A stretch of 64,000 bases of DNA from Psammoneis japonica (Eukaryota). The stretch covers positions 1 to 64,000 of the forward strand of contig QPGO01000281.1 in assembly GCA_008632985.1 (NCBI GenBank). Reading direction: 5' to 3'. The notes below the pieces were generated by a model. It was not told where the DNA came from. It did not search any database and saw nothing but the letters and a program-made list of their open reading frames with translations. Positions 1-53,022 of the stretch are shown in pieces (position 1 is the first letter of the stretch; the number at the start of each line of letters is the position of its first letter). A program made the position numbers and the translations under genes.

Positions 1-82
1 GTGCCGAGCTATGTACTGCGCCGTTGACGAAAATATCCAATGGCTTCGCCAACACTTTGGAGTTTCTTTTTGTTTTTGACAG

Positions 83-3392: not shown

Positions 3393-4737
3393 GTCCCGTT
3401 CTATTCTCTTTCAATGGAGATGTAGGATTGCTTTACTACGAGTGAGGGGAAAAGGCAAACAAAAAGCATGTTAAACATGCGAACTCGTGCTACTCAACTA
3501 AACGAGGTGATGATGCGCACCTTATTCTTGCTGTTGTCAAAAGCTGCGAGGTTTAAAACCTGGATTTGGGTTGATTGAGGTTGCAATCGTCGATCGATGC
3601 ATTTTGTGAGTACTTATCAAAAACACCCACAGGAAAAACTCGCGATTTCATTCCCGGATGTGTCACGAATGTTCGGAGCTCGCTTCTCGTTTTTCGTTTT
3701 TGGTCTCGACCATCATTCGCATCATGCGCAACATGGATTCTTCTCGAGTCGTTGACGAGGAACGAAGGACAAGTAAAACGGAGAACGCCATTGTCACTTC
3801 ATGCCGCCGCTGCTTTGTGTTTTTTGTCAAAAAAAAAGCAAAATTGAAGACATAGTGTAGTCACGATTGCGTAACGTGTCTATCATAGTGTTTCTACTTA
3901 CTTTACACTTATACGTAGCAGCCCCTGTACAAAAATTTGTATGCCAAGACTCTTTGTGTTCGGTGGTGGCGGTTTTTGTCTCAATTGCTGCACTTCTGGG
4001 TCGAGACTCAAAAATTAGATGAGAACAAAACTGAGACGAAGAAATGAAGAACACATGGCCAGCACAAACCAATGGCAACCTTGATCCCAGACTCGTGTCT
4101 CTCTCACATTTTCTCACAAGGCCACACCACCAAGAGCTCTCTCTGGAGAGCTGCAGAAAAATCCAAAGCTGTGCAAGAATCATTTCTCTCCTGCCAGACC
4201 ACACGCCATGTCTCACCTGAGCAGCCTCACGCTCAAATGCAGGCGCTGCTTCTGCAAAAGCCAGGCCACAAGATGCAATGCCGGGAACATGCACACAATC
4301 ATCCACCAAAGCACACGAGGAAAAAGTCAAGCCATTTGTCCAGCGATTGCTTGGACGGGCATTTCATGCAATGCAAGCAAGAGCAGCCCGAGCGACGGAA
4401 CCTGCTGCTGAAGATGCGAACAATGTGGTCATTGCCTCAGACAGTTTGGCAGGAACAGGCTCACCTTTTTCAACATGCTGAAGGTGTGTCATTGTCTGAC
4501 TCAGCTGGCAATGCCATGGGCAGCATGTGAGAAGTGATCACATGCTGTGATTCAACAAGTCTTGTTGCTGCTGCATCTCTCCCACAAAGTCAAGGTGACA
4601 ATCTGAGTTGCTGGGCTGTTCTCCCATCAATTAAAAGTTGACAGCAAGCCCCTGGTGTGCTTGAGGAGCAGCCTTGCAAGTGGTGCTGGGCCCAGCAAGC
4701 ATCTTGACTTGCGGGGCATGATGCATGGATGCAAGCA

Positions 4738-4997
4738 GGCCTGCTCCAGTTCCAGGTGATCTGCTTTTCATCACGCGAGAGGCCGATTTTCTGCGCAGTT
4801 TAGCACAATTGACTCCTTCAATTTTGATCATTTTGAAAATCGAAAGGTGAATGTGCACCCAAGAACACATGCAAAGTGCACACTCACCCTTTGATTTGGC
4901 AAAAAACGGATTTGGAAAAAGTCAATTGTGCTGAATGCACAAATTTCCAAATGATGGGAATCGAACCCGCACGGAGCACCTGGAGCTGGAACAGGCC
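4738..4997. mobile_element. 260-bp fold-back MITE-like element
   Basis: Arms ggcctgctccagttccaggtg / cacctggagctggaacaggcc, with inner inverted pairs (agcacaattgact/agtcaattgtgct; ggtgaatgtgcac/gtgcacactcacc). Flanked by AGCA on both sides (4734-4737, 4998-5001). Confidence 0.7.
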
Positions 4998-6340
4998 AGC
5001 AGAGCAAGCAAATGTGTTGAGAGCTTGGCAGAGAACTTCATCAGAGGGTGCAACTTTTGACTCACATTGTCAAAACTGTTGACAACTTGAATTTAAAAAA
5101 TGCTGGCTGCAGCGCTCAACAAAATGCATTTGTTTTGTGCATTTCATCTGATGTCTCATCAGCTCATCTTGTTTTGTCTGTAGCTTGGTTGGGGTTGACA
5201 TCTTTTTTTTGTGATGCATGGTTTGGTTTCCTTTCAATGATCATCAATTTGAACTTGGTTTTAACTTTGTCCCCCCCCCACTCATGTGCATGCATCCCTT
5301 GCACATGTGCAGCTCACTCACCATGCACACACAACCCACCCCCATTTTTCATTTTTTTGTTCATGCTTCCCACACTTGTGCAGCCCATTGGTCTGTGGCA
5401 TTTTCAGCATGTTTTTACAAGCGCAATTTCCTTCACACTCTTCACAACAGCACTCCCTCTCCCCAAACAACAAAAAGTGAGAGTGTGCACTGTTGTGATT
5501 CACATGGATTCTGTGTGTTGTTGCAAATCTGCAAATTGACAACCTGCCATGGTGGTGAAAGACTTTGCCCCATTGGCCAATGACAACAGCTCAATGGTTG
5601 GTGAGACCTGCTGTCCTGCTGGTTGGTCAAGATGAACTTTGACAGGGGATTCTCTTGAGTTTGGTGGTTGCAAGTGTGCTCTCACAAATCTGTCAAAAAG
5701 AATCATGCCAAGCTGGGGTGCTGTGATTCTGTGTGTGTGCACATCGCAAGCTTTTCTGCAGCATTGATGCAATTGTGCTCGTCAGAGGTTTGACATCCAG
5801 AACAATCACAAGTCACCACAAGCGACACTCTTTAAACAAGGAATGTGCAAAAAGGTGACAATGCAACCATCTTCTCCCAATTTTTTGCCCAGGTCCAGCC
5901 AAAAGGACAGCAGAGGTGAAGAGTGGGGAGGCAGCCCATTGGAGGATGCCTGAGTTTCTCTTGGCTGTTTGCAGTCCATGCTTTGAGCACATCATTGATG
6001 AGCCATTCACAGCATGGGAGGTGTGAGACAAACTCAGTCATTGTGGCTTGTCATTCATGCAGCACCTTGCGCTGTGCGGCACACATGCAGTCAGGCAGTG
6101 CTTGTTCCCACAGCCACTCCGGTGAGTGCATTCTGTGGCACTTGGGATGTTTTTTTGGTTTCTCACATGCTTTTTCAATTGTGTCCATGTGTTCTTTGAG
6201 TTGCAGGGGTGGAGCTGCTGGGCACTCAATGTCATGCACTCACAACAATGTCACCAGCTCTGGAGTCAGCGGCGCTGGGTGCACCGGCAAGTCTGTCTTG
6301 CAGCTCCTGTTGGTCATGTTGCTTCATCTGTGTCATGCTC

Positions 6341-6631
6341 TCACAATGTGTTCTCTCCACCTTGTTTCCTGAATGGCTCTTGCAGGCCAGGGTTCTGTGG
6401 TGCAGCTGCAACCATGATGTTGATTGGTGCTTGGCACGTTGTGCACCCCAATGTCCATTCCCTCACATTTGCAGCCATTGCTGGCCACCAGAGCCTTGTG
6501 GCAATCTTCCAGCAGGTCTTTTCACAGCTTGAATGTCCTGCACAAGGTGAGATGTGAAGGGCAGAGAAGATGGCTTGTTTGCATCTTTTTGGCACTTCTC
6601 TTGCATGGGCAAAAAAGTGTGCATCAGTCAC
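6341..6631 (-). pseudogene. Retroelement (Ty3/Gypsy-type) integrase zinc-binding domain remnant
   Basis: LHISPCAGHSSCEKTCWKIATRLWWPAMAANVREWTLGCTTCQ matches the H-x-GH…KT…WWP.M…C..CQ (HHCC) pattern. Confidence 0.7.
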
Positions 6632-7739
6632 AGGGCATGGTTTGATGCTTCAACCTGGTGAGTGCACTCTTTCATCAGAGGCCCATGGAAAAGGCCTTCA
6701 GTCACAAGTCATTGAACCCCACCATCTCATGGCATGCACGTGCGCTCCTAGATTGGTGGATCCCACTCCAGATTGAAATTGACGTTTGCTTGTTGGAAAG
6801 ACAACATTTTTGTTCATTTTCAATTTGTGGATTAGAAAATCAGGCATTTGTTGTTCCACGACACATTTTATTTAATTTAAATTCATTGACTTGCACGCCA
6901 AAATGCCAAGTCACACGGCACTGTCATTCCCTCAACCAAGGACAATTGCATTTCGTTCCAGCTGAAAAATGTTCATTTTCATGTTGTGCAAGGCATTTTT
7001 GCCAAAATTTCTGCATTTCCGTCCTCATGATGGATGTCGATAATTCCGCAAAATTTTCCACCCTTTTCTGCTCCCCCCAAAACCCCCTCTCCTCTCCACC
7101 AAATCACAATCTTTCATTTGCACCATTCCCCCGAGCGATCCTGTTTGTGGCATTTGTCCCTTCTGCTTGTGATCTGCGGGTCCAGTCCCCTGTGGTTTTG
7201 GTGAATCAGTGCAGAACCGTGAAAGCAGCATGACAAGAAGTCCGCGGGTTTCTGCGTCCTCTGTTCATGCCGTGATCGCCCATGGCGGTTTGCCTCACCT
7301 GCCGTTGCGACCACGCCCTGTCTCAAAGTCACGCCCAAGCAAAAGCAACATCTCTCTCCCAGCTCTGAATCATTCAGGGATGCCACCGAATGTGAAACTC
7401 GCCCATCGCACCGCTTTGTCACGTCTCCAGACCACGACGGCTTGCTCAATGACATTTTTTTGACATCCAACGTGGTGGCAAACCTCTCTGATGACACCAA
7501 TCTTGGCTCTGACAACCACTCCGGTGGCAACGACTCGTCTGCTCAAGGCAATGATCACGCCAGCACACTGTCTGCATCCGGAGACCTTGACGGTCATGCC
7601 AGCGATCTTTCTTTTCCCAACGAAGACAATGTGGGCGCTGATTCTTTAGATGGAAGCAATGTTTCTGTTCTTGACGACCACGCCAAAGCATGCTCAAATG
7701 GTGTTGACGGCACCCACATGACAAAGTCCCAATTTTAAA

Positions 7740-8680
7740 AAAAACATTGAGACGCAGCACCACCGTCAGAAGTTCATCGAGACTCACAAATGGACCCCCT
7801 CCGCTGATCTCATTGCCCTGCCCTTCGTTTGTTGTAACCACCAGAATCAAGCCTCCCATTTCTTCATGGAAGTGTTGATGGTCAACGACACAGTTGCCCA
7901 TTCTCTTGGCTGTAAAGATGGCTTTCATCATGTAAAAAGTCGTGGCTGGATGTGTTTTCGTCGTAAAGATGGGAGGGATGTTCTGGCATGCCACAAGCTG
8001 GCCAAAACCTTTTCCAATCTTTCTCGATTCGGCAAACATCTCCATGCAATCATTGATGATTTATGCAAGATGACAGTGAGCGAACGAATTGGCAACGACC
8101 CTTGCTTCCTTTGCTCAACAGCTTCAAGTCCAAATTGGATTTTTTTGCACAATGCCTGGGCATTGCTGCCACCACAATGGACTGTTGCTTTCTCCCTCAC
8201 GTTGACAAAGAGTTCGGCAATTTTCGACGCTGGTTGACCATTGTTTTTTCCGGCTGCGAAAAGAGGAAACAGTTCATTCTGTTTTGCAACAATGTTTTGA
8301 CCCTGATGAACACGGAACAGAAGTTGAAGGATGGGAAGGTCACCAAGAAGATCCTCACCAATCATCTGGAATGTGTCAAGGCTTGCGTTGACACTCATGC
8401 CATGGCAAAAGGTGTGGCACAAAAATGCCAAGAGTTGGTTGAGCGTGAGCTCCATTCCACCTTCAAGTGTTCCTGCAAGGACACGAGTCATCTCAAGTTC
8501 TGCAACCCAGCAATTGTGCGATCATGTGACCACAATCTCACGCATCCACACCTTTCCTGTGAGGCCAAGGCAAAGTTTGTTTCTTCCACCAAGAGGAGGA
8601 AGAAGAGCAAGGAGTCCTCCAGTGTGTCTGCTGGTTCTCTGGCACCTCCGCCCACTTCATCCAAGAAAGACACCAACTAG
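7740..8680 (+). pseudogene. Accessory ORF a of element 1, function unknown
   Basis: HFFMEVLMVNDTVAHSLGCK is homologous to HFFVEPMAVNRIVAKELGCK at ~30785-30845 (-). Confidence 0.5.
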
Positions 8681-9602
8681 AATCCTGTTGCTCATCCAAC
8701 CGGCACCACGGCCGACACCCCACCGTCTGCCAATCGCTCCACAAGCACACTCGCCTCCCAGTTGCAACCTTTTGCTGACGACAAAGTCGAGGTGTTGTTG
8801 GATGGAGAGTCATCATCGTCGGGTGAATCATTGACTGAAGACCACCCCATCCAGAATGTCCCCAATGCCGGTGCTGTGGGTCCATCCCTGGGAGGAGTTG
8901 CTTCTTCAGCATCTCCATCAAAGCCAAGCACACAGGCCAGCACCACAACTTCCTCGTCAATCAACAATCGGTTCCCCCATGGTCATTGTTGCTGCTTTGC
9001 ATCCCTTTCTGAGGTCTCGAGGTGCACTCCTCGCATTTGTGTTTTTTATGATCTGGACGACGATGACGATGACAATGAGCAATCTGCCAATCGTGAGTTA
9101 AACCTGCATCATTCTCCAGCAGACTGTTGCTCACATGATGATCTACGACATCATCTCCACTCATTTGTGATGACGCAACCACTTCCTTCTGCTGCAAATC
9201 ATGACCAGGAGCTGGTGGTTGTCCCACCCAGAGCTCAACGCATTCAGGATGATGCTGCCATTTTGCGCTCATCCTCCCATCTTTGGCAGAAACACTTTGG
9301 ATCTCTCCAAGTTTGCGCTGCAAAAAAAACAATGATGATTGGTCCAAGCAGCCAGAGAAACAAGACTGGATCGATTTTGGCTGCTGTGGTCAGTCGCACG
9401 ATGTGCTCGAGAATGGCAAGAAAGTCCCACAACACTGCAAGTCGGTTTTGGAATTTTCGAGAAAGAAAAAAACGTCGTCATCCGCAATCAGATCAAGTCA
9501 ATGCTTGCAAATGCATGCGATTCCATGCAGAGGTGCCATGATGAGCTAGAGACAGAGCACTTTGGCAATCCTTGACCCTGCAACAACACCGCACGAACTG
9601 CA

Positions 9603-12213: not shown

Positions 12214-12517
12214 GAAGATGTGATGATTTGGTGTCCAGCTCATCCAGGAACATTCGCGCCAATGGCGCCACTTCACCTGGCATTCGTTGGACATGGAAAT
12301 GGCAAAACACATTGAGGTGGTGATCACAGTGACAACCAATGAAGTCGGGAAGATGGTCGGACATAAAAACACGCAAGGCGACAAGCCGGTTCCTCACAAA
12401 GAGCAGCTCCCCGCCAATGATTGAGCCACATTGATGCATGTCAAGTCGAGCGATTGTCCCATTGGCATGCCTCATCAAGTTGCGGTTGCAGCTTTTTGCA
12501 GGTGGAGAACAGACATG

Positions 12518-15637: not shown

Positions 15638-18600
15638 TCAAATCATTGGGTGGCAAGCCCACTGCCAATGCAAGCCCACATTGTCTGCCTGGGAATGGCG
15701 CCAAAAGCTGCATTTGTCAGCACCCTCAGAACTTTCCTCTCTCATCATCATTTCCCGCATCCATTCACAAAACATCTTGGCCCAGTCCAGGTGGGGTTTA
15801 ACCACCATCACTCTGTGCTCCCTTCTCTGGTTGCAATTGCGCACTTGGGGTGGGACCGGGCTGTTGCATTGTTTGGACATGAAACACAGGATGCCATGAC
15901 AAATTGATTGAATGCAAATGTTGCACATGGACGGATGTCTGGATGATTGGAGTTCTTGCGCGCAATGAGCAAACAATCGGGTGTCCCCAAAATCAGACTC
16001 GGTCACCCGGGCAGATGTGGACTTGCAGTCAACCAAGTGAATGATGGCCTTGGCAACCCCGTTGGAATCCTTGCAGAACCCAACAATGCGGGCGGGATGC
16101 AGCTCACTGGATGCATTGTCCATGTTGAAATGGACTTCCGCCCAGTTGAACCAGGGTCCCTCTTTGGAACAATGCTGTGGGCATGCTCTGAGGTGGTCGC
16201 CATTTGCGAGTTTTGCTTCAATCCAAATGTCAAACTCAGGTTGGTCCAGTTCAAGTTCTTGGATGGCTTTGAGGAAGGCGTGGCAAGGTGCACCAGTTTC
16301 CCGGTTGGCGGGGCTTTTGGCACCATGTCGGTCGAGTGCATGCACGTCATTGAAAGAATCACGCCAGAAGACAAAGTGTGGCATTCGTCGGGCAACCTTT
16401 GATTCCCGGTCACCATTGGCAACAGAGGATGCATCCTCTTCAGGAGCACCTGATGCAAGGTTTGCTTCCAAATTCCAGAGGACGATCTCATCCACACACC
16501 TGCCACAAAGAAGAGCTTTGCAAATTTGTTGGCAGGTCTGTTTGAGGAAAGTGGCCATGCCTCTCTTCTGTGCCGTCTTGGATGTCTTTTTTGCCTTTGT
16601 TTTCAACAATCTTTCACCGGTCGATGCGTGCAATTGCATGTCGTCACCTGGCCACAAATGATGAAAGTTCTTGTGGTTCTGGGCTTCAACCTTTTCCAAG
16701 TCGAAGTTGGCGGAGTTGTTGCACGGTGCAGGATGGTGTCCATGCACCCAACCACTCGCTTTGTCCCAAAGCAAATCATGGCATGATCCTTCTGCACAAC
16801 TGCCGGGAGTTGGTGTGAACAATGACAAAAAGCATGGTGGCAGAGAATGTGCTCCAAGAAAGAAGAGCATGTCTTCATGTTGGATGATGTTGCGCCGGTG
16901 AATCCATTTCCCTTGATTGTTGGTTTCTTCCGACAGTGCTTCATGACACAATTCTGCACAGGGTGAGAGAGCTGGCATGGATTTTGAACTGCCACGTCCT
17001 CCCCGTCACATGATTCCTCTGAGGCCAACAGATCCACCATTTTCTTTGAGACAGTTTTGCACAACCCCCATTGACAATGTGTCCCCTGACCTTGGAACGT
17101 TTTCCATCATTTCCTTGTAAAAGACCATCAATGCATTCCAGGACGATGGGACATGCAATGGAGTCCAGCACATCACGTGGAGGGCAAGAATTTTCCTCCT
17201 TGCTTTTGATGGTTTTCATAATCTTCCAAGACTCAACTTCAAAAAAGAAAATCTGTGCAGCTTCAGGTGCTTGATGACATGCTGAATCGTTTCTGGCTGG
17301 CAATCAAAAGCATCGTTTTTGCCATGGTCCCTTGATTGTTGGTTTCTTCTGACGGTGCTTCATGACACAATTCTGCACAGGGTGAGAGAGCTGGCATGGA
17401 TTTTGAACTGCCACGTCCTCCCCGTCACATGGTTCCTCTGAGGCCAACAGATCCACCGTTTTCTTTGGGACAGTTTTGCTCAACCCATTGACAATGTGTC
17501 CCCTGACCTTGGAACATTTTCCATCATTTCCTCGCAAAAGACCATCAATGCATTCCAGGTTGATGGGACATGCAATGGAGTCCAGCACATCACAAGGAGG
17601 GTGAGAATTTTCCTCCTTGCTTTTGATGGTTTTCAAAATCTTCCAAGACTCGACTTCAAAAAAGAAAATCTGTGCAGCTTCAGGTGCTTGATGACATGCT
17701 GAATCGTTTCTGGTTGGCGATCAAAAGCCTCATTTGGCCATGGTCCATGGCAAAAAACATGTCCTTCCTGCAAGGAAAAATGGTGGGTGGAAGCGGTTTC
17801 TTTTCCTTTTCTTCCTTGGTGGCGGCTTGTTGTTGAGCCGCCTCCTCAGCGGCCTTTCTTGCCTTTTCCCTTTCGCGGGTGGTGTCACAAGTTGCTCTTT
17901 GTCACTTGTTGTCATGTCCATGGGAAGTCGCAGAAGATCGGGATCTTTTGCCAACACTGGACCTGTCATTGTTGGAAGGCAGGGCATCGTCTGGCCCCTG
18001 CGGGAACATCAGAGGAGGAGGGATCGTTGCTGCCAGACTCATTGGCATTTTCGTTCACGCTGTCATTTGGTTTTTTGTGCAGAGAGGCAAGTTTTGAGGC
18101 GGAAGGAAACATTTTGCACTTCTTCTTTTGGCGTTCATGCACCGTTTCCATTGTCTCACGAGGCTTCAGGCATTGCATCACCACACACAGGTAGAACAGA
18201 GAACCCATTTTTTGGGGGTGGGTCTGGAGAGTCATTCTGCTAAAGCCAGAACTTGAGCAACCTTCAGGGTGTTGTGCCAAGGCTGTGGACCTGCAGCATC
18301 CAACGACAGCTTTGAGTTCTGTCTCAAAGTTTTCCTTCTCTTTCTTGGCAAATCCAAAGCACAAGACTTGTGCCACGTTCTCCACACCACCTGCTTCCCA
18401 GGAATGAAGGTGATTGTCAGCCGTCGCTGCAAACACACCCCATGGATTGCCTCCGAAATTGACACCGTCGAAGGTGTTTTGCAGAGGGTGCATCATGTGC
18501 GGATGCAAAAGCAGAGCCTCTGCGAGCTTCTGTTGCTGCTTGACCAATGGACTGCACTTGCCAAATGCTGCTGCAGTGGAGCCGGTCCATCCAACTGCCA

Positions 18601-22377: not shown

Positions 22378-23129
22378 AGATGGCGGCCCTCTTTGTCCCC
22401 AAGATTTGGTGCTCCACATGTTTTCCTGTCAAGTTTTTTGTTGAAGCAGATCAAGTGCTGGCACTTGTTGCAGGAATCAGCTGCTCCCCATTTTCTTAGT
22501 CATTTTGTGCTTTTTTGCATGAATGGCATGTTCTTTTGCTTTCCAAAGGGCTGGCTCAAGAACCTTTCTTGCTTGCCTTGCAACTGCCCTGACAGCTGCT
22601 TTTTTTCAAGGCTTTTGACTGCTCTTGGAACAACACCGCAGTAGATTGCAGCCAGACATGGAAAAATCAGGGGCAACGTGTTCTCTGACTCTTGCAGAAT
22701 GATCTCTACAGTGTCAGCCAGATGGCTTGTGTGGAAACCATGCTGATGCCACCAAGGATCAAAACGTGGGGTGAGCAACCAAATTTCAGTTCTCCTGTGA
22801 CACACAGAACAAATGTGTGAAGGCATCAGAAGCCACACACACCAGAAAAGGCTTGGACTTCAACAACATTGGAGGACTTCTCACCTGGCAGCTCTGCAGC
22901 ATGGAGCGACTCTGCACATGTTTGTTTGTGTGGGCCATCTGGTGGAGCAGCTGTGCACTGGCTTTGGGAGAAAAGTGCCATGGCTGCAACCACCAATGCC
23001 TCCAGACAGTTGATGCCCTGGCTTCTGTGTGAGCCACCACAGCAACACTTGCCACATGACTGAAAAACATTGCAGCTGTGTGTTGCACTTGATGGCCAAC
23101 CTTCAACACACTTTTTCCTGGCAGCAAAC
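22378..23129. repeat. Spacer X segment duplicated at 59666-60415
   Basis: Colinear, highly similar match from agatggcggccct to cctggcagcaaac. Confidence 0.9.
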
Positions 23130-26950: not shown

Positions 26951-26965
26951 GCGTGCATCAATCTG

Positions 26966-32249: not shown

Positions 32250-33518
32250 TTGACATCTGCGGTCAATCCCAACTTTCTAAAACCAAAAGACATCACTTCC
32301 GTGGTTGATCTTTCCAGTGTCAACTGCTGTGCAAGGGAGTGTCACAACAACAGCGCGCTTGAACAGCATGACTTTTGCCCTCCTGAGCGAGTTCGTGATT
32401 TCACCCAGGTGCTTTTCAATCTTTTTCAGATGTGATTTCAACCCCAATCACCTTGACTCACTTTTGTGATTCCTTTGTCCGTCTTTAGGTTGATCTTGGC
32501 TGTGCCATGGCAGATGACCCTAGTCTGGGTGTTCCAATTGGAACCCCGTGCGCCAACATTCAGATGCTGGAAGATGTGCAGTGCACAGGAGAACCTGTCC
32601 CGGGTCCACTCACAGCACTCACGTTCGAGCACAAGTCGGCCCCTTGCCAACAGGATTCTCCCTCAGGCGGCGGATGCATTGGTGCTGGAGATCTAGCATG
32701 TTCACAAATTTCTGCAAGAGAAGCTCTCTGTGAGGGTGACGGTGACACGTTTTTCACAAATCTTGTTTCAAATGGTGATCAAATTCCCATTGATGATGGC
32801 ATGGCAGCGTTGCCCTCCAGCATCGCATGTAAATTCTTTCTTCCTGGGGGTGGCACGGAGTGTCAAACCGTGGCTGTTGACACAGCTGGAGAGAGTGGGA
32901 TCCTCAGTCTCCCCACTGGGTTTGGTGGCCTCACGACAAAGCAATGCACAGTGGGGACAGGAACTGTGAAGAGCTGCCCCATTGCTGTTGTGTGCACATC
33001 GGAGGTTGTGAACATTGCGGACACGAATTTGACGATCAATGAGTTTCTTTTCGAAATCAATGCGGAAGCAGAACAAGATTTGCTTCCCGGCGCCAGCACC
33101 ACAACCATTGAACCAGGTCAGAGTTCCGCAGCGGTTGGCCCGATTGTTGTGGACCATTGTGTGGACCAGTGCTGCGATGCCTCCATGACGATTGAAGTTG
33201 AAGACACATGTGGCACAGTCAAGAATGACAAGGACGACGACAATTTCTGCGTCGTTTTCGACTCCATTGAATTTTCCTTCTTTGACGGCACTCCTGCTCC
33301 TTGTGACCAACTCGTCATCCCGGACAGCCGAAGATGTGCCACTCCAAGTCCTGCCAATTGCATTGGTTTGTCAACGCTTTCAGTCCAGGATGTTTCTTGC
33401 AAAGAAAGCGAAAGCCAAAACAGCCAAGTCACCGATGCATGCGATGACTTTGCTGATGTGGGACTCGAAGGGGAAACATTCCTTGTCACGTGTGGCACCG
33501 CTCAGGCTGACACTCTAA
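32250..33518 (+). pseudogene. Gene A copy 2, 5' part (TpA-depleted); continues in 33872-33920, 52001-52029 and 53023-53459
   Basis: Phase-0 intron 32409-32488 (GT…ttttAG-type). ORF 32507 onward aligns to A3 and A1 (KNDKDDDNFCVVFD, LSVQDVSCKESESQN). Removing four insertions restores …IRDV.L.EPFEFDIGDDCPTERIQCKVYNP. Confidence 0.85.
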
Positions 33519-35422: not shown

Positions 35423-36928
35423 CTTCCCTGTGTCTCCGCGTCTGCTGCTGAGAATTGCACAGCAACGGACGAGTGGGACTGCCAGTCCGTCGCCCAGCGA
35501 CATTCCGCCAATCAGTTTTCATGACAAGACCTGGAGAACTGGCTGGGGCACCCTCGTTGTGTTGCACAGTTTGAAGAAAAGAGGACCGGCTGATCTGGGT
35601 TGTGTTGGCAGACGGCGCAAGCTCATTTCTCCTTGACATTGGCAAGAACACACACATTCCAGAGTCACTTGTCGGTGGATCGTCTCCGTCTTTGACATCT
35701 CTTCCCTGTGTCTCCGTGTCTGCTGCTGAGAATTGCACAGCAACGGACAAGTGGGGCTGCCAGTCCGTCGCCCAGCGATGTTCCGCTGATCGGTTTTCAA
35801 CAACAAGACCTGGAGAACTGGCTGGGGCACCCTCGTTGTGTTGTGCAGTTTGAAGAAAAGAGGACCGGCTGATCTGGGTTGTGTTGGCAGACGGCGCAAG
35901 CTCATTTCTCCTTGACATTGGCAAGAACACACACACTCCAGAGTCACTTGTTGGTGGATCGTCTCCGTCTTTGACATCTCTTCCCTGTGTCTCCGCGTCT
36001 GCTGCTGAGAATTGCACAGCAACGGATGAGTGGGACTGCCAGTCCGTCGCCCAGTGATGTTCCGCCAATCGGTTTTCAACAACAAGACCTGGAGAACTGG
36101 CTGGGGCACCCTCGTTGTGTTGCACAGTTTGAAGAAAAGAGGACCGGCTGATCTGGGTTGTGTTGGCAGACGGTGCAAGTGGATTTCTCCTTGACATCGG
36201 CAAGAACATGTGCATTCCAGAGTCACTTGTTGGTGGATCGTCTCCGTCTTTGACATCGCTTCCCTGTGTCTCCGCATCTGCTGCTGACAATTGTGCAGCA
36301 ACGGACAAGTGGGACTGCCAGTCCGTCGCCCAGCGACACTCTGCCAATGGGTTTTCAATGACAAGACCTGGAGAACTGGCTGGGGCACCCTCGTTGTGTT
36401 GCACAGTTTGAAGAAAAGAGGACCGGCTGATCTGGGTTGTGTTGGCAGACGGCACAAGCTCATTTCTCCTTGACATCATCTCCATCTGTCATGTCTCTTC
36501 CCTGCATCTCCGCGTCTGCCGCTGACAATTGTGCAGCAATGGACGAGTGGGACTGCCAGTCCGTCGCCCAGTGATGTTCCACCAATCGGTTTTCAACAAC
36601 AAGACCTGGAGAACTGGCTGGGGCACCCTCGTTGTGTTGCACAGTTTGAAGAAAAGAGGACCGGCTGATCTGGGTTGTGTTGGCAGACGGCGCAAGCTCA
36701 TTTTTCCTTGACATTGGCAAGAACACACATGTTCCAAAGCCACTTGTCGGTGGGTCGTCTCCGTCTGTTGTGTCTCTTCCCTGCATTTCCGCATCTGCTG
36801 CTGAGAATTGCACAGCAATGGACGAGTGGGACTGCCAGTCCACCGCCCAGTGATGGCCCACCAATCAGTTTTCAATGACAAGACCTGGAGAACTGGCTGG
36901 GGCACCCTCGTTGTGTGGTGCAGTTTGA
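35423..36928. repeat. 279-bp tandem repeat, about 5.4 copies
   Basis: Anchor gaagaaaagaggacc at 35573, 35852, 36131, 36410 and 36648 (one unit has a 41-bp deletion). Partial last unit. Confidence 0.95.
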
Positions 36929-37687
36929 TGCAAATGAGGCGAGGACTCACCTGCGATGTCAGGGGACAATGGAATGAAAGCTCTTGCCAAAGCGGCTGTT
37001 GTTGCATCCCAAGAAGAGAAGGAGGAAATTCCGGTTGTCACAGGAGGAGAATGACCACAATTCCCAGGAAGAAGATGTGGAAGAAGAGGAGGAGGAAATG
37101 CGGCTGTCAGAGGAGGAGAAGGAAATCTGTGAATTCCAAGGAAAAAGACAATGATGCTTCTCAGGAGAAGGAAGATGTGGACTCTTTGCCAAAATCATCA
37201 AAATCCAAGGAGGGGGACATTCAAAACATTCCTCCCAAGCTCCGGCATTTCGTGACTTCAATCAAACATGACATGTCAAAGCGTGTGCAGGACAATGTCC
37301 ACCGCACTTGTCCCTTGTTTGCCGTGGTCAACCCAAGCACAGAACCAAAATTACTGACTAAATTGGCAAATTCTGGACGCGGGCCAAATGATCGCGGGAA
37401 GAAATGCTTTTTGTTGCATCACAACCAGAAGGGGTTGTCATCTGACTTCTGCAAAGAAGGAATTAAAAAATCAAGGGCAGCTGCAAAGGATTTTCTTCTT
37501 CGTGAATTCAATCAAGAAAACGAAGGCGACATCATCGATTTGTTGAACAACAAACACACTCACATTTTGGGAATTTGTGCAGTGCCAAAAAATGAAGAAA
37601 TCGGCAAACTGGGTGCGCATCTTGTCGCTGCATTGTTGTGTCAGTGCATTGAATTGGTGCCAGCAACAATTGTTGACTGTGTTCGAG

Positions 37688-44571: not shown

Positions 44572-45157
44572 TGTCATGTGGCACAAGGCCCATTGTGGGT
44601 GATTGTGGTAAATTTAAGAGTCGTTCATGAAAAGTGAGACCACAAAAGTGTAAAATTATGAAGTGAATTTCTGGAGCGGTGATCTCGCGGAATGTTCTTC
44701 TGATTCTTTCTTTTCCAGAGAAATTCTGTTCTCGTCATGTAGGAACATTCCTGGGTTCTTCTTTAAGTGTGTGTCGTCCAAGGGAACGTCTTGGGACTTC
44801 CGAGGAGGTCACGTATGGTGTCCGAAGGTGTCACGGGAAAAATCGAGAGATCCGATTCACTCTTCATCGTTTCGACCGTTTTCTTGTGAGAATCGGATTG
44901 GCTGAAAAGGAACTTGAAGTTCGGCTGAGAAATGTCTTCTCGATTTACTTGGGAAGTGATGCACGTGTCCAGTTGTTTGCCATCGCTTTCCGCACATGTC
45001 TGGTTGTTTGCTCAGGAGGAAGATGTTGGACAATTGTTCATGCAGTGTGCATGTGTCTCTTGATGTGTGCTCACACAGATGTGTGTTGGTTCTGTCCGCA
45101 GTTCTCTGTTGTTCTTTGTGACGTCACGAAGTGTCGGGTCATGAGCACGACGTGACA
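44572..45157 (-). repeat. 3' LTR
   Basis: Direct repeat of 51209-51798. Confidence 0.95.
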
Positions 45158-45180
45158 CACGCCTCCTCCAATGAATTGCA

Positions 45181-45852
45181 TCAGGGAGAGAAAGGAACGA
45201 GACGCCGTGCATTGACAGTCTCAAGGCAATTTCCTTTTTGGATGATGACAGTGCCATTGGACTTTACTTCATGTGTCTCGGCGAGTTTGGATCGACGAGG
45301 GTTGTCGTTTCGGAGAGAAACAAGGTCTCCTGCTTTGAAGTCATGGTCGTGTCGCCGAGAGTTCTCACGCACGTTGTCTGCTTGCGCTTGTTGTCGGCGG
45401 CGAGCACAAATGGTCGGCCAGTGGACGTTGCATTGCAAGGGCAGGATCACATCGCGTCCAAAAGCAAGTTGGCTGGCAGAGGCTTGCATGACGGTGTGTG
45501 CCGTCGAGTTTGTTGCCCAAGTTGCTGAGGCCATTGTCACATTCCACGGATTCGGTTGATTAAATGCGTCGGGATCATCAACTTGTTGAGCTCGTGTGCA
45601 GCTCCATGAAACATCGTGGGTCCGTTCAAGTGATAAACTCACCTGTGGACTCCGCACTGTTGTGGGTTTAGACTCAATTCCATGAGAAATTGGCAGTTCT
45701 TGAAATTCAACACCTGTAAATTCTGTGCTGTTGTCGTGTGTGCAACAGACCGGGCGCGGGAATTTACACAACCATGCTTGGTTGAATGCTCTGGCTGTTT
45801 CCAGAGCTGAGACTGTGGAGATCTGCTCCATGCCAAAATGATGAGTGGCCAG
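45181..45852 (-). pseudogene. Gypsy integrase core and GPY/F region
   Basis: WLCKFPRP…HDNSTEFTG.EFQE…GIESKPTT…PQ…ERTH; …QLAFGRD; FKAGDLV; ETVNARRLVPF. Confidence 0.85.
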
Positions 45853-47034
45853 GGACACACGGCATTTTGTCGCATTTGGTGACATTTTCTTAAATGAATT
45901 GATGATTTGTCGCGAAAAGACGCGAATTGCAACAAAATGTCCGGGTTGGCAATAAACGGGACAGAAACATTGTTCAACTGAGTCACAAAATGATCAATGT
46001 CATTGATGACCAACCTGCACTTTGGCGATGTCGTTTCAACAAGTGGGGCAATTAACAGAATTTGGTGATCGATGTCATCGACGAAATTTCATCTGACAAA
46101 ATTTGTCGGATGCGACAAAATTTGTCGTGTGAGACAAATTTTGTCGGACGTCCGACAACGCATCCGACAAGACACGACAAGACACGACACGACACGACAC
46201 GTCACGACACGTCACGACACGTCACGACACGTCACGACACGTCACGACACGTCACAACACGTCACAACACGACGACTCACGAACGAAACACCCACACCCC
46301 CCGCCGCACACGCCAACTGCTGACGTCTCCGTTGACACTGTGTCTCTTTTGCACAATGATGCAAAGCGACGATCATGCCGCTCTCGGCGGTCTCCAATTT
46401 TTTTATTTCGAAATTTTGCACTGTCACTCCATGTCCCCGAATGTCGTGCTCTCGTCAATGCCGGGACAACATCGTACGCTTCTACACAGTGGAACGGAAT
46501 GTGCCGGCATGTGTTGCTGTGCTGCACCTTTCATCAGTGGGTGGCTGGGGCCCAGCTCTCTGCTGGTCTAGCGAGCGGCAGGCAAATCTCGTGGAGACAG
46601 TGTCGCAAACATCCGTCTGTCGGCGTTTGTCGGCTCTTGTTGGCTCTTGTTGGCGTTTGTCGTACGTTGTCGGGGTTTGTCGGGGTTTGTCGGATGCGAC
46701 AAAATTTGTCGTACGTCCGACAAAATTTGTCGCACGTCCGACAAAATTTGTCGCACCCGACAAAATTTGTTGCATCCGACAAAATTTGTCGCACGTACGA
46801 CAAAATCGCCAAAACATCAATTGATGAGTGCAGTCTTCGCCGAAAGCCAAATTCATCACAAAGCACCGCAGTTGACACAACGTTTGTGTTTGGGACACGC
46901 CATCGCCAATTAAATGATGATTTTGTCTCATTTATCGCCAACGATGTAAATTTGTCTCAAAGGGCGTTTTTCACGACAAATCGTCCAATTCATCCATGGG
47001 AATGTCGCAATTGGCGACAAAATGCCGTGTGTCC
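45853..47034. mobile_element. 1.18-kb non-autonomous TIR element (Harbinger-like) inserted in the integrase
   Basis: TIR ggacacacggcattttgtcgc / gcgacaaaatgccgtgtgtcc, TSD CAG on both sides. Internal 10-bp (gacacgtcac) and ~21-bp (cgacaaaatttgtcg…) arrays. Confidence 0.85.
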
Positions 47035-49549
47035 CAGATCTGCCATCGCCGGCACCAGCAGTGAAGGCAATCGGTCTGACGGTGTCAACTGCCACCTGCA
47101 ACCAGGGGTCGATCTCAAGGGCTTGCATGTCCTTGAGAGGTGTTTTTCCATGCACTCTGCGGTTCTCTTTGGACCTTGCACAGGCCTGGCATTGGTCTGT
47201 CTTGGTCTTGACGTCTTGGGTCAGACCTTGCCAATGGCAGCACTGTCTGAGGGTCTTTTCCATCCATTGGACACCTGGACAGCGCAAATTGACATGACAC
47301 CAATTCAACAGAGGTGCTTGTAGAGTGGCGGGGATGACAATCTTGTCCTTAAAAAGGGCCAGGCGCAGGTGTCCATCCTGCACCATGCAACTGCAGTCAG
47401 ATGATTCTTTCTGACTCGGGTCGGTGCGAGCAAGTTGCAGCGCTTTTTTGCACACAGCATCATCTTGCTGTGCTTCAATGATCGTGTCAAACGAGACAGG
47501 ACAGCGAGTGTTGTCGTCATGTTCAAAGGCGAAACACTCTTCCAGCATTGGATCTGCAGCTGGTGTCTCTGGGTCACCAGTCGTGGTCGCGGCACGGGAT
47601 GAGAAATCCGCGAGCACATTTTTTGCTCCCGGCAGGTGAAGAATCGTGGGACCAAACTCCTCAACAATCAGCCGCCAACGACACACACGGTCTGATTTGA
47701 AATTTGCAAAGGTCAGATTCTTGTGGTCCGCACAAATCGTGATCCTGTGACCCAACAGGATGTCACGACACTCTCGTAGCGTCACAACTGTCGACAGCAG
47801 TTCTTGTTCGATGACGGGATGTCTTTTTTGCGTGTCAGAGAGTTTGCGGGAGTGGAACATCATTGGGCGCTTGTCTTGAATGACAACGCTGCCCAGCTGG
47901 TGTTTTGAAGCATCGGTGTAGATGTGGAACATCTCATTGAAATCAGGGCAGGCAAGTGGCGTCTCAGCAGAGATTCGTCTCTTAATTTCTTGAAACGCTT
48001 GCTCGTGTTCGGGTTTCCACTCGAACTTGACTGCTTTCGAGGTCATGCTCGAAAGAGGTGCCAATGGATGGGCACGAAGGCACAACATTTCGAGACAGAA
48101 GTTCATCATTCCGATGAAACCTCTGAGTTCTTTCTTTGTTTTGGGCGAAACCAAATTCACAATCGCGTTGACCTTCTTCGGTTGCGGTTTGATTCCGTCT
48201 CTGGCAACAATGAACCCCAGGCACTCCGTTTCTAGAGCGCAAAAGAAAGTTTTTCGCAAATTTACTCTAAAGCCTGAATCACTCAAAAGCACAAATGCTC
48301 CACGCAATTGGGCGAGGTGATCATCAAAGGATCCCTTGCCAATGATCAACAAGTCGTCAACAAAAATCAGTGCAAATTCCAAGTGTCCTAACAGGTCAGT
48401 CATGACCTCTTGGAACACATCTGGGGCTGGTGCAAGTCCCATTGGTGATCTGCAGCAAGCACATTTGCCAAACGGCAGCGCAGCAGTCAGATGTTGCTGA
48501 CACTTCTGGCTGATCCGCATTGAAAAAAATCCCATGTTCAAATCGATCGCGGTGACACAAGCACAGCCGTGCAGCTTTCGTAGCATGGTTGGCATTGAAG
48601 GCAGAGGCCACGGGCGTCGTTGCATGCATCGATTTAAAAGCCAAAAGCAGGTGACGAATCGGCAATCACCACCTTTCTTCGGCATGAACAATGAAGGAAA
48701 TCCCCAAGCTGAGTCTGAGATCCTTCTCAGAACTCCCACTCGGCACAATCTCTCTGCTTCTTCTTTTGCCATGTTGCAGTTGATCTGGGGCATGCTGCAA
48801 GGTTGACACATGATGGGCTTGGTGCTGGGCTCAAGCTCAACATTGACCGGTGGTCGCTTGACGCATTGTCCGAGCTCTCCTTGCGTGAGACTGGAGAAGT
48901 CTTCCAGCAAGGCAATGAGAGCTTCACCTTGCTCTCTTGACAAGTGGTCAGGCACACACTCCCTCAAGTCCTCCACAGGACCACAGTCATTCGGGCGAAC
49001 AGCTTTGGCCTTGGGAGCCGCCACAAGCTCTTCTCGCGTCGTCGGTTGGTGCCAAAAATCCTCGGGATGTCTCATCGGAAAGGACAAGTCATCCCAAGCA
49101 ATGACTTTTTCTTGGAAATCAAGCTTCATCCCAAGCTTGAACAGGACATCTCGTCCTGCTGCAGCATCATAGATTCCTTGCAAGGGTGAAATGTAGAAGC
49201 ACAAATCGAATTGTCGGTGCAAGGACATGTCAAGGAATCGACAACGAGTGAGTGCGACATGAGTTGTCTGATGGGTCTGCGCAAACAAGGTCTCCCATCT
49301 TGTTGGTGCTGGGGTGGCCTCATCCAGTGTTCCTTTTGAGAGCACATCTCTTTTCATTGTTGTTCGACTGCTGCCGCTGTCGAGCAAGGCAAGCAGAACA
49401 TTGTTGCTTTTGTCTCGAGTCCCATCAACTGGATCGAGCAGTTGAAGTTGCACGACACATCCGGGGTTGACCTGGAACACATGAGCCCCTTCTCGTAGGA
49501 TGTGTCCCTCCATGAGGGAACACTGCGCAGTCGCAATCGTCCATTCCAT
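47035..49549 (-). pseudogene. pol: Gypsy pol: protease, reverse transcriptase, RNase H, integrase zinc finger
   Basis: LLDSGSS; AIDLNMGF, PMGL, FVDDLL, LGF; TDASK.QLG, EQELL, DHKNL, ADFSSR; H…PG…C..C. Confidence 0.92.
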
Positions 49550-49899
49550 CTGGACACAATGCCTCCATCAACTCCTGGGCGTCTGTGCTGTTGTCATGTT
49601 CAAAAATTGATGACGTCAGAGACGCGCGCTCGTCTGCGCTGTCTACAGGATCACGCTCGTCATCGGCATCTTCTCCAAAAGATGACAGCTCGTCCACAGA
49701 CGACATGCACAAGGTTGTCGACGATGCTGCTGACATGCTGCTGTCGGCACTCCACAAATCATTGCTGTCTGTCGATGTTGATCCACCATGTGGCACAAGT
49801 TCCGGCAGGCTGGATTCGTCAGTTGTTTCCACTGTGGATCCCTGTCTTTGTTGCAGCTCAAAGTTTTCTGGCAACAGAGAACGCAGCAATTCTCTTCCA

Positions 49900-50953
49900 C
49901 GCAAGCATCACATTCTCCATCTGATTCTTCATGAGAATGGCTCGCATCGTCTTCCTGCATCTCAAGTCCATCTTCTTGTTCGCAAGGTTCAGGTTCAGCA
50001 TCATCTCTTGTGCTGAGTTGTTCCAGTTGTTCAGCTGGGGTTGTGTCTGTGCTGCTGTCCAGGTTCTGGACTGGTGGAGCTTCTTCTGGCTCGTTCACGG
50101 CACGCATTTCTTGCTGGTTCGTTCGGGCATGTCCTCTCTGTTGACCACAACCTTGAGGATGGTTCCTGTCACGCTGTAAGTTGGCTTGGCATCGAGCAGG
50201 ATGTCGATGTGTTTGGTCAGGAGGAGCTCCGGCGTTGTTGTTGTCATTGTTGCTCGGTCGCATCGCTCGGTCGCCTCCATGTCCGCACGCGGTTCGGCAG
50301 CCGTGAGTGTGGGCACGTCTCTGGAATTGCCATTGGTTGCTTGACAACCTTCTCTCTTGTTGGGCCTTCTTCTTCTGCAGGAAGGATTCAATGGTGGAAC
50401 AGCATGTCTCCAAGTCTGCCGTGCCATGCTCGCCTCTGTGTCCGACGGACAGCTGGAATCTCTCGCGCCAATCATCCGGCACAGCGTGCTCTGCTGCATG
50501 AGTCAACTCTTGGTCGGTGAGAGGGGCTCTCTCTTCTGCAGAGCCTCTCATGCAGGGCACTGGCTCATTGATTTCCGAAACTCTGGAGGTGAAATCAATG
50601 AAGGCAGACTCTCTTGGCTTGCGCACGGAGCGCAAGTGCTGTTTCTGTGCCACCGCTGAGTTTTGCGGAAGCAATCCAGCAGTGACGGTCTCCAATGCTG
50701 CACTAAATTGTTCTGGGGTAAGATCTTGTGGGTCTTCAACTAGAGCTCTGACAGCTCTTTGATGTCGGTCCTTTGTGCAGCCTTTGGTTGGGCACAGCAT
50801 CTGGCAATGGAGGGCTGGTCCAGCGGTCCAGTGCTTGAGCTTTCTTGGCTCATGAAAGTTCTTTAAGAACACTGGGTGCTTCTCCTTGTTGGAGGCATCA
50901 CACTGATGGATGTAGAATGCCACAGTGTCTTCCGGGTCTCCCAGGTCAGGCAC
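49900..50953 (-). pseudogene. gag: Gypsy gag-like ORF
   Basis: Lies between the 5' LTR and pol. QKQHLRSVRKP…F..RV.EINE…AVPDDW…F pattern. Confidence 0.7.
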
Positions 50954-51208
50954 AACCTTGCACTTGATTGGGTTCGCAACGTCGTCCGCTGCATTTGGGG
51001 TGCGACTTGTGTGACTTCACAATCGCTTGACTGGTCATGTTCTCCTGTGCTGTGTGAGCATCATCTTGAGGCAATGCTCTAAAGTGCCATTCTTCAGTTC
51101 CGTCGAACTGGGGGCTGCATGCGTGGGCTTTCTTCGCCTTGAGCAGAATGCTCAGTGCTTTGCTGAGAGGCGGCATCATCACAATGACACGCCACTGTTT
51201 GATCAAAG

Positions 51209-51798
51209 TGTCATAGTGGCACAAGGCCCATTGTGGGTGATTGTGGTAAATTTAAGAGTCATTCATGAAAAGTGAGACCACAAAAGTGCAAAATTATGAA
51301 GTGAATTTCTGGAGCGGCGATCTCGCGGAATGTTCTTCTGACTCTTTCTTTTCCAGAGAAATTCTGTTCTCGTCATGTAGGAACGTTCCTGGGTTCTTCT
51401 TTAAGTGTGTGTCGTCTAAGGGAACATCTTGGGACTTCCGAGGAGGTCACGCATGGTGTCCGAAGGTGTCACGGGAAAAATCGAGAGATCCGATTCGCTC
51501 TTCATCGTTTCGACCGTTTTCTTGTGAGAATCGGATTGGCTGAAAAGGAACTTGAAGTTCGGCTAAGAAATGTCTTCTCGATTTGCTTGGGAAGTGATGC
51601 ACGTGTCCCGTTGTTTGCCATCGCTTTCCGCACATGTCCGGTTGTTTGCTTGGGAGGAAGATGTTGGACAATTGTTCATGATGTAGCATGCATGTGTCTC
51701 TTGATGCATGTTCACGTAGATGCACGTTGGTTCTGTCCGCAGTTCTCTGTTGTTCTTTATGACATCACGAAGTGTCGGGTCATGAGCACGACGTGACA
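51209..51798 (-). repeat. 5' LTR
   Basis: Direct repeat of 44572-45157. Confidence 0.95.
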
Positions 51799-52029
51799 TG
51801 TCGATGCTTGTTGTTTTCTGTTTTCTGGGCGTTGCCGTCAGTTTTGGTCGGTTTTGATGGGGGGGGGGGATTGTGTTTGGTTTGAAAGAGTGATGTGGCA
51901 GTTCGCATATGACGGAGAGACTGACGTAATATATTTTTAACGAAAAAGTCGTGGTGAGCATTTGGTGAGCATCTCCGTGGTGAGGAATTAGCAATTCTCG
52001 GACTGTCCAACAGAAAGGATCCAGTGTAA

Positions 52030-53019: not shown

Positions 53020-53022
53020 TAA

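Follow-up and report, generated by a model that had tools for sequence, protein, structure and literature searches.

What removes nearly every TA dinucleotide from some 48 kb of repeat and transposon DNA while neighboring genes keep theirs? The question is raised by the 64,000-nucleotide stretch of Psammoneis japonica contig QPGO01000281.1 analyzed here, referred to as the window, for which an original prediction had proposed a new genome-defense system converting TpA to TpG or CpA. Our analysis leads us to a DNA-level, locally targeted process through which TA steps of silent repeat DNA had their A:T pairs mutated to G:C, a reading that we hold with a probability of roughly 0.78. A process of this kind, TpA hypermutation, has been observed directly in mutation-accumulation lines of Bigelowiella natans.

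Two sharply bounded domains have lost TA and CpG

TA depletion is confined to two domains, whose coordinates are collected with those of the other features in Table 1. Throughout domain 1 (~3945-51800), the observed/expected ratio (o/e) of TA lay between 0.00 and 0.27 in 48 of 48 one-kb bins, from 4001 to 51001, and in domain 2 (56690-60416) the bins 57001-59001 gave a TA o/e of 0.00-0.07 together with a CpG o/e of 0.08-0.20. Per-kb dinucleotide counts in the flank bins 1-3001, 52001-55001 and 61001 yielded 0.52-0.69. Taken over both domains and strand-symmetrised, as are the other inside and outside ratios of this section, TA o/e is 0.08 inside and 0.59 outside, in agreement with the predicted near-absence of TA over 48 kb, and again at 56690-60416, between normal flanks. 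Base composition predicts 3136 TA between 4010 and 51800, where 260 are present.

The loss is specific to a few dinucleotides. CG o/e is 0.55 inside the domains and 1.06 outside, a depletion in the same DNA that the prediction did not mention, and TG/CA rises from 1.14 outside to 1.64 inside. For the remaining 12 dinucleotides the inside-outside gap is at most 0.11; AA and GA show no depletion in the domains, with an AA o/e of 1.24 inside versus 1.18 outside. With flank densities as the scale, the domains lose 1720 TA and 1569 CG (3289 in all) and gain 1612 TG and 1612 CA (~3225). The excess of TG and CA had been ascribed to TA loss, which holds for the TA part; 1569 of the 3289 lost dinucleotides are CG and reflect a parallel CpG decay. 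Base composition is the same inside and outside (A/T 0.256, C/G 0.244), since the change of TA to TG or CA raises G+C and the change of CG to TG or CA lowers it about equally. The o/e values of TG and CA both stand at ~1.4-1.9 in every 2-kb bin, and because the two rise about equally throughout, both strands must have been targeted.

CpG o/e falls to 0.08-0.24 in the oldest parts of the domains, and a retroelement integrase remnant at 6344-6649 sits in bins with a CpG o/e of 0.10-0.24. CpG loss is roughly even across contexts, at 0.41-0.58 of flank density. An exception is the 4-mer GCGC, nearly all of which is retained (119 versus 125 expected).

The domains end abruptly, within tens of bases. 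On the left of domain 1 the last dense TA lies at 3940 and homology with the duplicated flank runs to ~4010, which places the junction between 3941 and ~4010. On its right, dense TA is back from 51908, 110 bp past the end of a long terminal repeat (LTR) at 51798; the predicted edge at 52015 thus lay ~100-200 bp too far out. For domain 2 the last dense TA is at 56686 and TA is dense again from 60431, the end of the domain coinciding with that of a repeat at 59666-60415. The flanking genes themselves are duplicated. The duplicated unit at 427-4002, which comprises a DUF7467 gene and an orphan gene, recurs at 53020-56739 with 87-89% identity (75% at its end). Both copies pass into TA-depleted sequence at equivalent positions, 3940 and 56686, and the units remain homologous for another ~65 bp, to ~4010 and ~56745, before they diverge.

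Outside paralogs give the direction of change

The polarity of the change can be read from a fragment of a host DUF7467-family gene, with its upstream region, that is embedded in domain 1 at 33147-33510 and aligns outside the domains to 60416-60535 (91%), 60699-60892 (82%) and 103-341 (81%). In these three alignments, TA outside was paired with TG or CA inside at ratios of 7:0, 3:0 and 4:0 over the reverse (14:0 in total); the first two use one inside segment, and we therefore take the independent count as 11:0. The predicted pairing of TA outside with TG or CA inside is thus found without a single reverse case. Likewise, the two independent pairs have CG outside facing TG or CA inside 9:0, and the third alignment has it 5:2. 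Three-way parsimony over 217 sites, restricted to the well-aligned part of the block, assigned 19 changes to the inside lineage (5 at TA, 3 at CpG, 6 other transitions and 5 transversions), and 12 (1 at TA) and 24 (1 at TA, 2 at CpG) to the outside lineages. The fragment thus decays as pseudogenes ordinarily do, and its TA and CpG changes come in addition.

Duplicates that lie outside the domains, 427-1503/53020-54078 and 1494-3394/54284-56220 (1.9 kb, 89%), have retained both TA and CG. Between them, TA is conserved in both copies at 56 positions and altered in one copy at 10, 45 of 895 other sites differ, and the transition/transversion ratio is ~1. That a trapped host-gene fragment was mutated and nearby duplicated genes were spared argues for position or chromatin state as the mark of a target, and against transposon sequence, or a sensing of duplication such as that of fungal repeat-induced point mutation (RIP), as the trigger.

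The changes arose in DNA, after insertion

The right end of domain 1 is formed by a Ty3/Gypsy LTR retrotransposon, to whose minus strand six Gypsy polyproteins match by tblastn at 45190-45858, 47048-49486 and 50456-50719. The two LTRs of one element are identical at insertion. Those of this element, ~590 bp long and 95.2% identical, differ at 28 positions, one of them a transversion and the other 27 transitions, of which 25 sit in TA, CG, TG or CA dinucleotides. TA is kept in both LTRs in 5 columns and faces TG or CA in 8, and CA faces TG in 4; CpG is kept in both in 25 columns and faces TG or CA in 9. Outside pyrimidine-purine steps, 2 of 313 sites differ. From the ratio of one-sided to conserved columns, each LTR has lost ~44% of its TA and ~15% of its CpG and has changed at ~0.3% of other sites, and relative per-site rates are ~90 times background at TA and ~25 times at CpG, values that rest on small counts and hold to an order of magnitude. 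The mutation of TA and CG thus acted on DNA in place, after insertion, and at rates far above background.

Elsewhere in domain 1, a tandem array of ~5.4 copies of a 279-bp unit retains no TA. Its variable pyrimidine-purine columns contain CA and TG in 9 cases, CA, CG and TG in 5, CG and TG in 4, and CA and CG in 1, the pattern expected if each copy resolved an ancestral TA or CG independently.

These observations bear on two readings in which the DNA of the domains was never attacked. According to the first, transposon RNA was edited from A to I by an ADAR- or ADAT-like enzyme and then reverse transcribed. The one recognizable element is indeed an LTR retrotransposon, whose sense strand carries more TG than CA (260 versus 225 in its pol frame; plus-strand o/e in 46-50 kb of 1.62 for CA and 1.35 for TG), although this amounts to a modest TG excess only; at conserved tyrosine columns of its pol protein, described below, 7 Cys stand against 4 His, and part of the depletion in this family may predate the present insertion. 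However, the LTRs have diverged since insertion almost only at TA and CG, the host-gene fragment and its upstream non-coding DNA were mutated 11:0, copies of the tandem array diverge in place with TG in one and CA in another, and both strands are affected across 48 kb. Post-insertion LTR divergence, the trapped fragment and the array together exclude the editing of RNA prior to integration as the principal cause; already contradicted by the LTR and paralog data, it strikes us as very unlikely.

According to the second reading, the domains are foreign DNA with a native TA-poor composition, or DNA under selection against TA, and never mutated here. Such an origin would suit the finding that most of the 48 kb lacks a recognizable homolog, with three credible Pfam regions among 250 open reading frames (ORFs). 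Set against it, a fragment of the host's own gene family has lost TA inside the domain relative to its paralogs, the LTRs diverged at TA after insertion, the loss is balanced exactly by TG and CA, and none of 120 Gypsy pol homologs is both Tyr-poor and Cys-rich. Inherited composition is ruled out by the LTR divergence, the paralog polarity and the array taken together; this reading is already contradicted and we give it hardly any credence.

TA steps followed by a pyrimidine are the preferred target

Survival of TA inside relative to outside depends strongly on the neighboring bases. It was lowest for ATAT, at 0 (0 inside, 68 outside), and ATAC/GTAT, at 0.003; intermediate for GTAC (0.03), ATAG/CTAT (0.03), ATAA/TTAT (0.09) and CTAC/GTAG (0.11); and highest for CTAG (0.25), GTAA/TTAC (0.26), CTAA/TTAG (0.29) and TTAA (0.73). 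A scheme in which each strand survives independently according to its 3' neighbor fits the 16 classes, with survivals of 0.075 for TAT, 0.24 for TAC, 0.42 for TAG and 0.87 for TAA. Survival data alone cannot separate an effect of the +1 base from one of the -2 base. Repeat pairs provided 28 polarized events from TA to TG or CA, 16 of them with C at the +1 position of the mutated A, and in the 17 informative events, in which one of the two As is followed by a pyrimidine and the other by a purine, the pyrimidine-side A was the one mutated in 14 (P = 0.013). As a motif, 5'-T-A-pyrimidine describes the target best.

A review table gives 5'UAG as the preferred context of ADAR1/2 and 5'ACG as that of TadA/ADAT2 (PMC10661471). 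On this comparison, the context found here would fit a TadA/ADAT-like enzyme better than ADAR, whose 5'UAG is the opposite of a 3' pyrimidine preference, a further point against the editing of transposon RNA by ADAR.

Tyrosines of the Gypsy pol protein were replaced in an open frame

The pol frame of the Gypsy element is still open over 873 aa and has Pfam matches to RVT_1, RT_RNaseH, RT_RNaseH_2 and Integrase_H2C2, yet its amino acid composition is aberrant. It holds 4 Tyr (0.5%) and 40 Cys (4.6%) and lies outside both ranges of its homologs, 120 of 120 of which have 2.9-4.6% Tyr and 0.8-1.8% Cys. At 22 conserved-Tyr columns, defined by Tyr in at least 7 of 9 homologs, the protein has Tyr at 2, Cys at 7, His at 4, Phe at 5 and other residues at 4, so that Cys and His make up 11 of 22. 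The 9 control homologs each had Tyr at 17-23 of 23-25 such columns, Cys at 0 and His at 0-1. Cys and His appear at Tyr columns because TAY becomes TGY (Cys) on one strand and CAY (His) on the other, and the frame has stayed open because a change of TA to TG or CA cannot turn a sense codon into a stop.

Adaptive replacement of Tyr by Phe (5 of the 22 columns, including FVDD in place of YxDD) was considered as well and rejected, as the controls themselves show Phe at 1-6 of 23-25 columns. The closest relatives of the pol protein are 39% identical metagenome proteins, with two diatom (Cyclotella cryptica) entries at 34-36%; a metagenome scan with pol returned one locus, with 41% identity over just 54 residues.

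Read contigs reproduce the TA-free sequence

A third alternative, raised already by the original prediction, is that the sequence itself is in error, a modified base at TpA having been misread so that the true sequence is still TA. In its favor, no N occurs across these 48 kb of repeats, and the assembly is therefore probably one of long reads. A public run (X1; library type not on record) holds 77% of the sampled words from 1-10000. Its contigs agree with the window at every letter of 3063-4081, a stretch spanning the left edge of domain 1, and of 4149-4780, and differ from it at 2 letters of 5556-6717; their word depth of 54-64 over the domain start is comparable to that of the flanks (61-75). 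The contigs thus give the TA-free sequence at single-copy, flank-like depth. Strand-wise misreading, moreover, would yield two half-depth versions, one with TG and one with CA, and none was seen. The changes are also evolutionarily structured, in that outcomes differ by copy and Tyr has become Cys or His in an open frame. A base-calling artefact is accordingly unlikely, and an error of sequencing or assembly as the source of the whole pattern seems to us a distant prospect.

Differences between the X1 contigs and the window have a character of their own. Several hundred were seen in 4003-20000, and 13 of the 19 best supported among them interconvert TG or CA with TA or CG. In one contig (depth 53.8, 599 bp), the TG of the window at 5633 is CG and the TG at 5663 is TA. 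Such a contig could derive from another allele or strain or from a nearly identical paralog, or else the two differences could reflect mutation that is still going on. Further inside domain 1, X1 contigs reach word depths of hundreds to 11,000, compared with 60-116 in the flank; these depths and the tandem arrays at 35423-36939 and 16909-17746 identify domain 1 as repeated DNA. We propose that the domains consist of silent repeat and transposon DNA.

A local hypermutation of TA steps probably accounts for the pattern

What has to be explained, then, is a change that is specific to TA, polarized towards TG and CA, active after insertion, sharply confined to repeat DNA and far above the background rate. 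The central claim of the original prediction, conversion of TpA to TpG or CpA on both strands within transposon-rich DNA, is borne out by the paralog polarity, the LTR divergence, the mass balance and the X1 contigs. In the mechanism that we favor, a local hypermutation would act in place on repeat DNA and turn TA into TG or CA according to the strand targeted, much more strongly where a pyrimidine lies 3' of the A and weakly in TAA. The lesion would be the conversion of adenine to hypoxanthine, which would pair with C at the next replication, and the enzyme would be a TadA/ADAT2-like deaminase, which small RNA or chromatin marks would guide to DNA that is silenced or foreign. Given the process itself, we put this chemistry, adenine deamination to hypoxanthine by a TadA/ADAT-derived enzyme, at roughly even odds. 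The effect would be a genome defense that cripples transposon proteins through replacement of Tyr by Cys or His and creates no stop codons, a role suggested by the targets and by the destruction of pol.

A slower decay of CpG to TpG or CpA would proceed in the same DNA, most simply through deamination of 5-methylcytosine in methylated repeats, so that all pyrimidine-purine steps would converge on TG and CA at constant overall G+C. CpG loss is most simply taken to be methylation-driven and independent of the TA change. The young Gypsy element already has a TA o/e of 0.07-0.17 in bins 45001-49001, while its CpG o/e there is still 0.69-1.48.

The same TA-specific, DNA-level process might instead have started on thymine or through error-prone repair. 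In the thymine version, T in 5'-RTA-3' would be modified, to 5-hydroxymethyluracil or a base-J-like derivative, and then copied or repaired wrongly to give C; some protists have 5-hydroxymethyluracil in place of T. In the repair version, mismatch-repair patches opened at the T:G mismatches left by methyl-CpG deamination would be refilled by a polymerase-eta-like enzyme, with A to G errors at TA. A change of A to G is the complement of a change of T to C, so the two are inseparable here, and TG and CA rise equally; the repair route would also link the CpG decay of the domain to its TA changes. In antibody hypermutation, polymerase eta shows a preference for WA motifs, and many of its errors are transversions. 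A polymerase of this kind should mutate AA too, and AA is undepleted (1.24 versus 1.18); it would be expected to leave many transversions, and the LTR changes are 27:1 transitions. The young Gypsy element, with TA o/e 0.07-0.17 at CpG o/e 0.69-1.48, shows in addition that no prior deamination of nearby CpG is needed. We regard an origin on thymine or in repair as unlikely.

Several observations weigh against our preferred account of targeted adenine mutation, or qualify it. First, the Gypsy family may have undergone part of its TA depletion before the present insertion, and the ancestral LTR is reconstructed with just ~16 TA in ~590 bp. Second, 11 of the 19 inside-lineage changes in the DUF7467 fragment fall at neither TA nor CpG, and ordinary decay therefore contributes too. 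Third, two older repeat pairs carry little information on TA, namely 22378/59666 and the 417-bp tandem pair, in which 2.2-2.3% of other sites differ and several transversions occur. Fourth, the evidence on context is thin, with 28 polarized events, 17 of them informative, and a 4-mer product analysis gave a mixed answer on the +1 versus the -2 base, its flank baseline being small and mostly coding. The context most eliminated by survival, TAT, differs from the ACG of TadA, and since a change of A to G reads as T to C on the opposite strand, the target base could be either of the two. Finally, X1 may be the assembly's own sample, hence not independent biological support.

Features of the window

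Table 1 Features of the two TA-depleted domains and their surroundings, with the basis of each assignment.
Feature	Position	Strand	Basis
Left flank: DUF7467 gene (80-859, +) and orphan gene on the minus strand	1..3940		TA o/e 0.55-0.64, Pfam
Domain 1, TA-depleted, CpG-poor, TG/CA-rich repeat and transposon DNA	3945..51800		Per-kb TA o/e, TA positions
Remnant of a second retroelement integrase	6344..6649	-	Pfam Integrase_H2C2, E 1.7e-14
Tandem duplication, 2 x 417 bp, 94% identical	16909..17746		Self-alignment
Repeat matching 59666-60415 at 95%, both copies TA-depleted	22378..23129		Self-alignment
Host DUF7467-family gene fragment and upstream region, hypermutated, embedded in domain 1	33147..33510	+	Paralog alignments
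Tandem array, ~5.4 copies of a 279-bp unit, zero TA left	35423..36939		Repeat alignment
Ty3/Gypsy LTR retrotransposon, right end of domain 1	44572..51798	-	LTR pair, tblastn
3' LTR (window-left end of the Gypsy element), 8 TA remaining	44572..45157	-	LTR alignment
Open pol ORF, 873 aa, reverse transcriptase, RNase H and integrase zinc domain, Tyr replaced by Cys/His	46928..49549	-	Pfam
5' LTR (window-right end of the Gypsy element), 11 TA remaining	51209..51798	-	LTR alignment
Gene island between the domains, duplicate of 427-4002	51905..56686		TA o/e 0.52-0.67 in bins 52001-55001
Domain 2, TA-depleted	56690..60416		Per-kb TA/CpG o/e, TA positions
Right flank: DUF7467 gene (60681-61433, +) and GC-rich stretch	60420..64000		TA o/e, Pfam

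Most of the 48-kb domain 1 has no recognizable protein homolog. A Pfam search of 250 domain ORFs gave credible matches in three regions only (Gypsy pol, the Integrase_H2C2 remnant and DUF7467), besides a sub-threshold Aminotran_3 fragment and three low-complexity matches, and these ORFs contained no giant-virus or virophage hallmarks by Pfam. Rfam gave 0 matches and the tRNA search 0 tRNAs in the window. The aminotransferase match is a partial class III match of the minus-strand ORF 37691-38896 (E 3.9e-6; 26.3 bits versus a cut-off of 30.5), which may be another trapped or captured host-gene fragment. Bins 38001-40001 hold slightly more TA, with an o/e of 0.13-0.20.

Within the Gypsy element, the ~1.2 kb that separate the main pol ORF from the match to the integrase C-terminus (45858-47048) show no protein similarity; they include small inverted matches and short tandem repeats, one with a 10-bp unit (46165-46271) and one with a 21-bp unit (46697-46806). 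The element is bracketed by a 66-bp inverted match (88%), with one arm at 43794-43859, ~700 bp ahead of the window-left LTR, and the other at 51943-52009, ~150 bp beyond the window-right LTR; the match may be a remnant of the insertion target.

In the flanks, the DUF7467 protein encoded at 60681-61433 had no hit by word-indexed search and 133 by exhaustive search, the best at 36% identity, and among 10 of these that were looked up the only name was that of a bacterial 'hypothetical protein'; the Atlas offered weak bacterial DUF7507 leads only, with a score of 0.87, under the 0.9 line, and a literature search for DUF7467 found no papers. A word-indexed protein search with the ORF 2220-3392 found no homologs. 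A contig from X2, which behaves like RNA although it is not recorded as such, skips 85 bases (3435-3521) whose ends, CT..AC, are those of a GT..AG intron in a minus-strand gene, and the orphan gene at ~557-3825 (-) appears to be spliced and expressed. X2 coverage is limited to bins within 1-4002, plus traces (0.67-0.71) in two bins of 4003-20000. At the other end of the window, 62001-64000 has a G+C of 0.587 and carries a 531-aa ORF at 61958-63553 (-) among overlapping long ORFs on both strands, none with a Pfam match.

Comparison with known systems

A literature search for TpA-specific hypermutation or depletion of repeats found one relevant paper, in which Mettrop et al. describe, in Bigelowiella natans, a hypermutation of integrated viral DNA that is specific to TpA (bioRxiv 10.64898/2026.01.13.699255). 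According to the passages of that preprint on which we draw, 231 of 302 new mutations in 15 mutation-accumulation lines fell in giant-virus and virophage insertions; nearly all of those in insertions were A to G or T to C, every GC-biased one lay on TpA, and the rate of ~6e-7 versus 3.5e-10 was ~1000 times background. The same passages describe 124 clusters of TpA-depleted, CpA- and TpG-enriched 1-kb windows, an enrichment of transposon domains among TpA-poor genes, and an ADAT2-like adenine deaminase as the enzyme proposed by the authors (10.64898/2026.01.13.699255).

The locus described here resembles the B. natans insertions closely. Its changes are almost only A to G or T to C at TpA (11:0 in the paralog pairs; 27:1 transitions in the LTRs), and they are confined to transposon-derived DNA next to normal genes, with one trapped host-gene fragment affected as well. 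By the preprint's thresholds, 40 of 64 one-kb windows pass both, and of the windows within the domains 50 of 50 pass for TpA and 40 of 50 for both. The two cases differ in stage. In B. natans, de novo mutations were caught in viral insertions that still hold TA (Rho 0.45 for a giant-virus insertion, in the passages cited), whereas the present window displays an end state, 48 kb of transposon and repeat DNA in which TA o/e is down to 0.08. Those passages of the preprint do not treat the 3'-neighbor context, CpG loss or flanking edges, all found here, nor do they contain LTR-based post-insertion rates, G+C neutrality, or the mutation of a trapped fragment whose outside duplicates were spared. 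The window is a further, very clear instance of a B. natans-type process, and the idea of an undescribed system gives way to the TpA to TpG/CpA hypermutation that the preprint reports (10.64898/2026.01.13.699255).

Fungal RIP is likewise a DNA-level, dinucleotide-specific, transition-only process that cripples repeats and leaves sharp edges. It differs in that its change of CpA to TpA enriches TA and A+T, whereas here TA is depleted 7-fold and G+C is unchanged; in that it is triggered by duplication, whereas 1.9-kb duplicates of 89% identity outside the domain were left untouched; and in that the process here creates no stop codons. For annotation this means that repeats of the present kind, which keep a normal G+C, are missed by RIP indices and by scans for A+T-richness.

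Decay of methylated CpG has its probable counterpart in the same domain, where the loss of CpG to TpG or CpA (o/e 0.55) is roughly independent of context. It explains about half of the gain in TG and CA and cannot remove TA. The parallel CpG decay suggests that the targeted DNA is also methylated.

Hyper-editing by ADAR and mutation by APOBEC3 share with the present case clustered, deaminase-driven transitions aimed at selfish elements, and ADARs favor a U before the edited A. These enzymes act before integration, on RNA or single-stranded cDNA, and mark one strand, whereas here both strands, non-retroelement DNA and integrated LTRs were changed, with a pyrimidine rather than G on the 3' side.

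The likeness to TadA and ADAT2 is one of chemistry, A to I on an A that follows U or T (U33-A34 of tRNA) and, in the TadA substrate, precedes C. The natural enzymes act on tRNA, in contrast to the DNA target here, and the context most eliminated here is TAT. Engineered TadA works on single-stranded DNA, early TadA-derived adenine base editors prefer YAC, and we know of no natural DNA adenine deaminase used for defense. Targeted hypermutation of A:T to G:C in cellular DNA is known from a single 2026 preprint, that on B. natans. Since the window comes from another organism, TpA hypermutation of silent selfish DNA could be a wider eukaryotic defense pathway, a generalization that we offer tentatively and at somewhat less than even odds. 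Such a pathway would target LTR retrotransposons and any sequence caught between them, and would work alongside CpG methylation, driving repeats to TG and CA with the same G+C and no stop codons.

The window shows the long-term outcome, with TA nearly erased from 52 kb of repeat DNA and the tyrosines of pol lost from frames that remain open, and the context order of TAT and TAC over TAG over TAA is a constraint that any candidate enzyme must reproduce. If the pathway is a general one, its T-A-pyrimidine target would point to a DNA adenine deaminase derived from TadA/ADAT; such an enzyme, if found, would be a natural adenine base editor, the counterpart in nature of the engineered ones.

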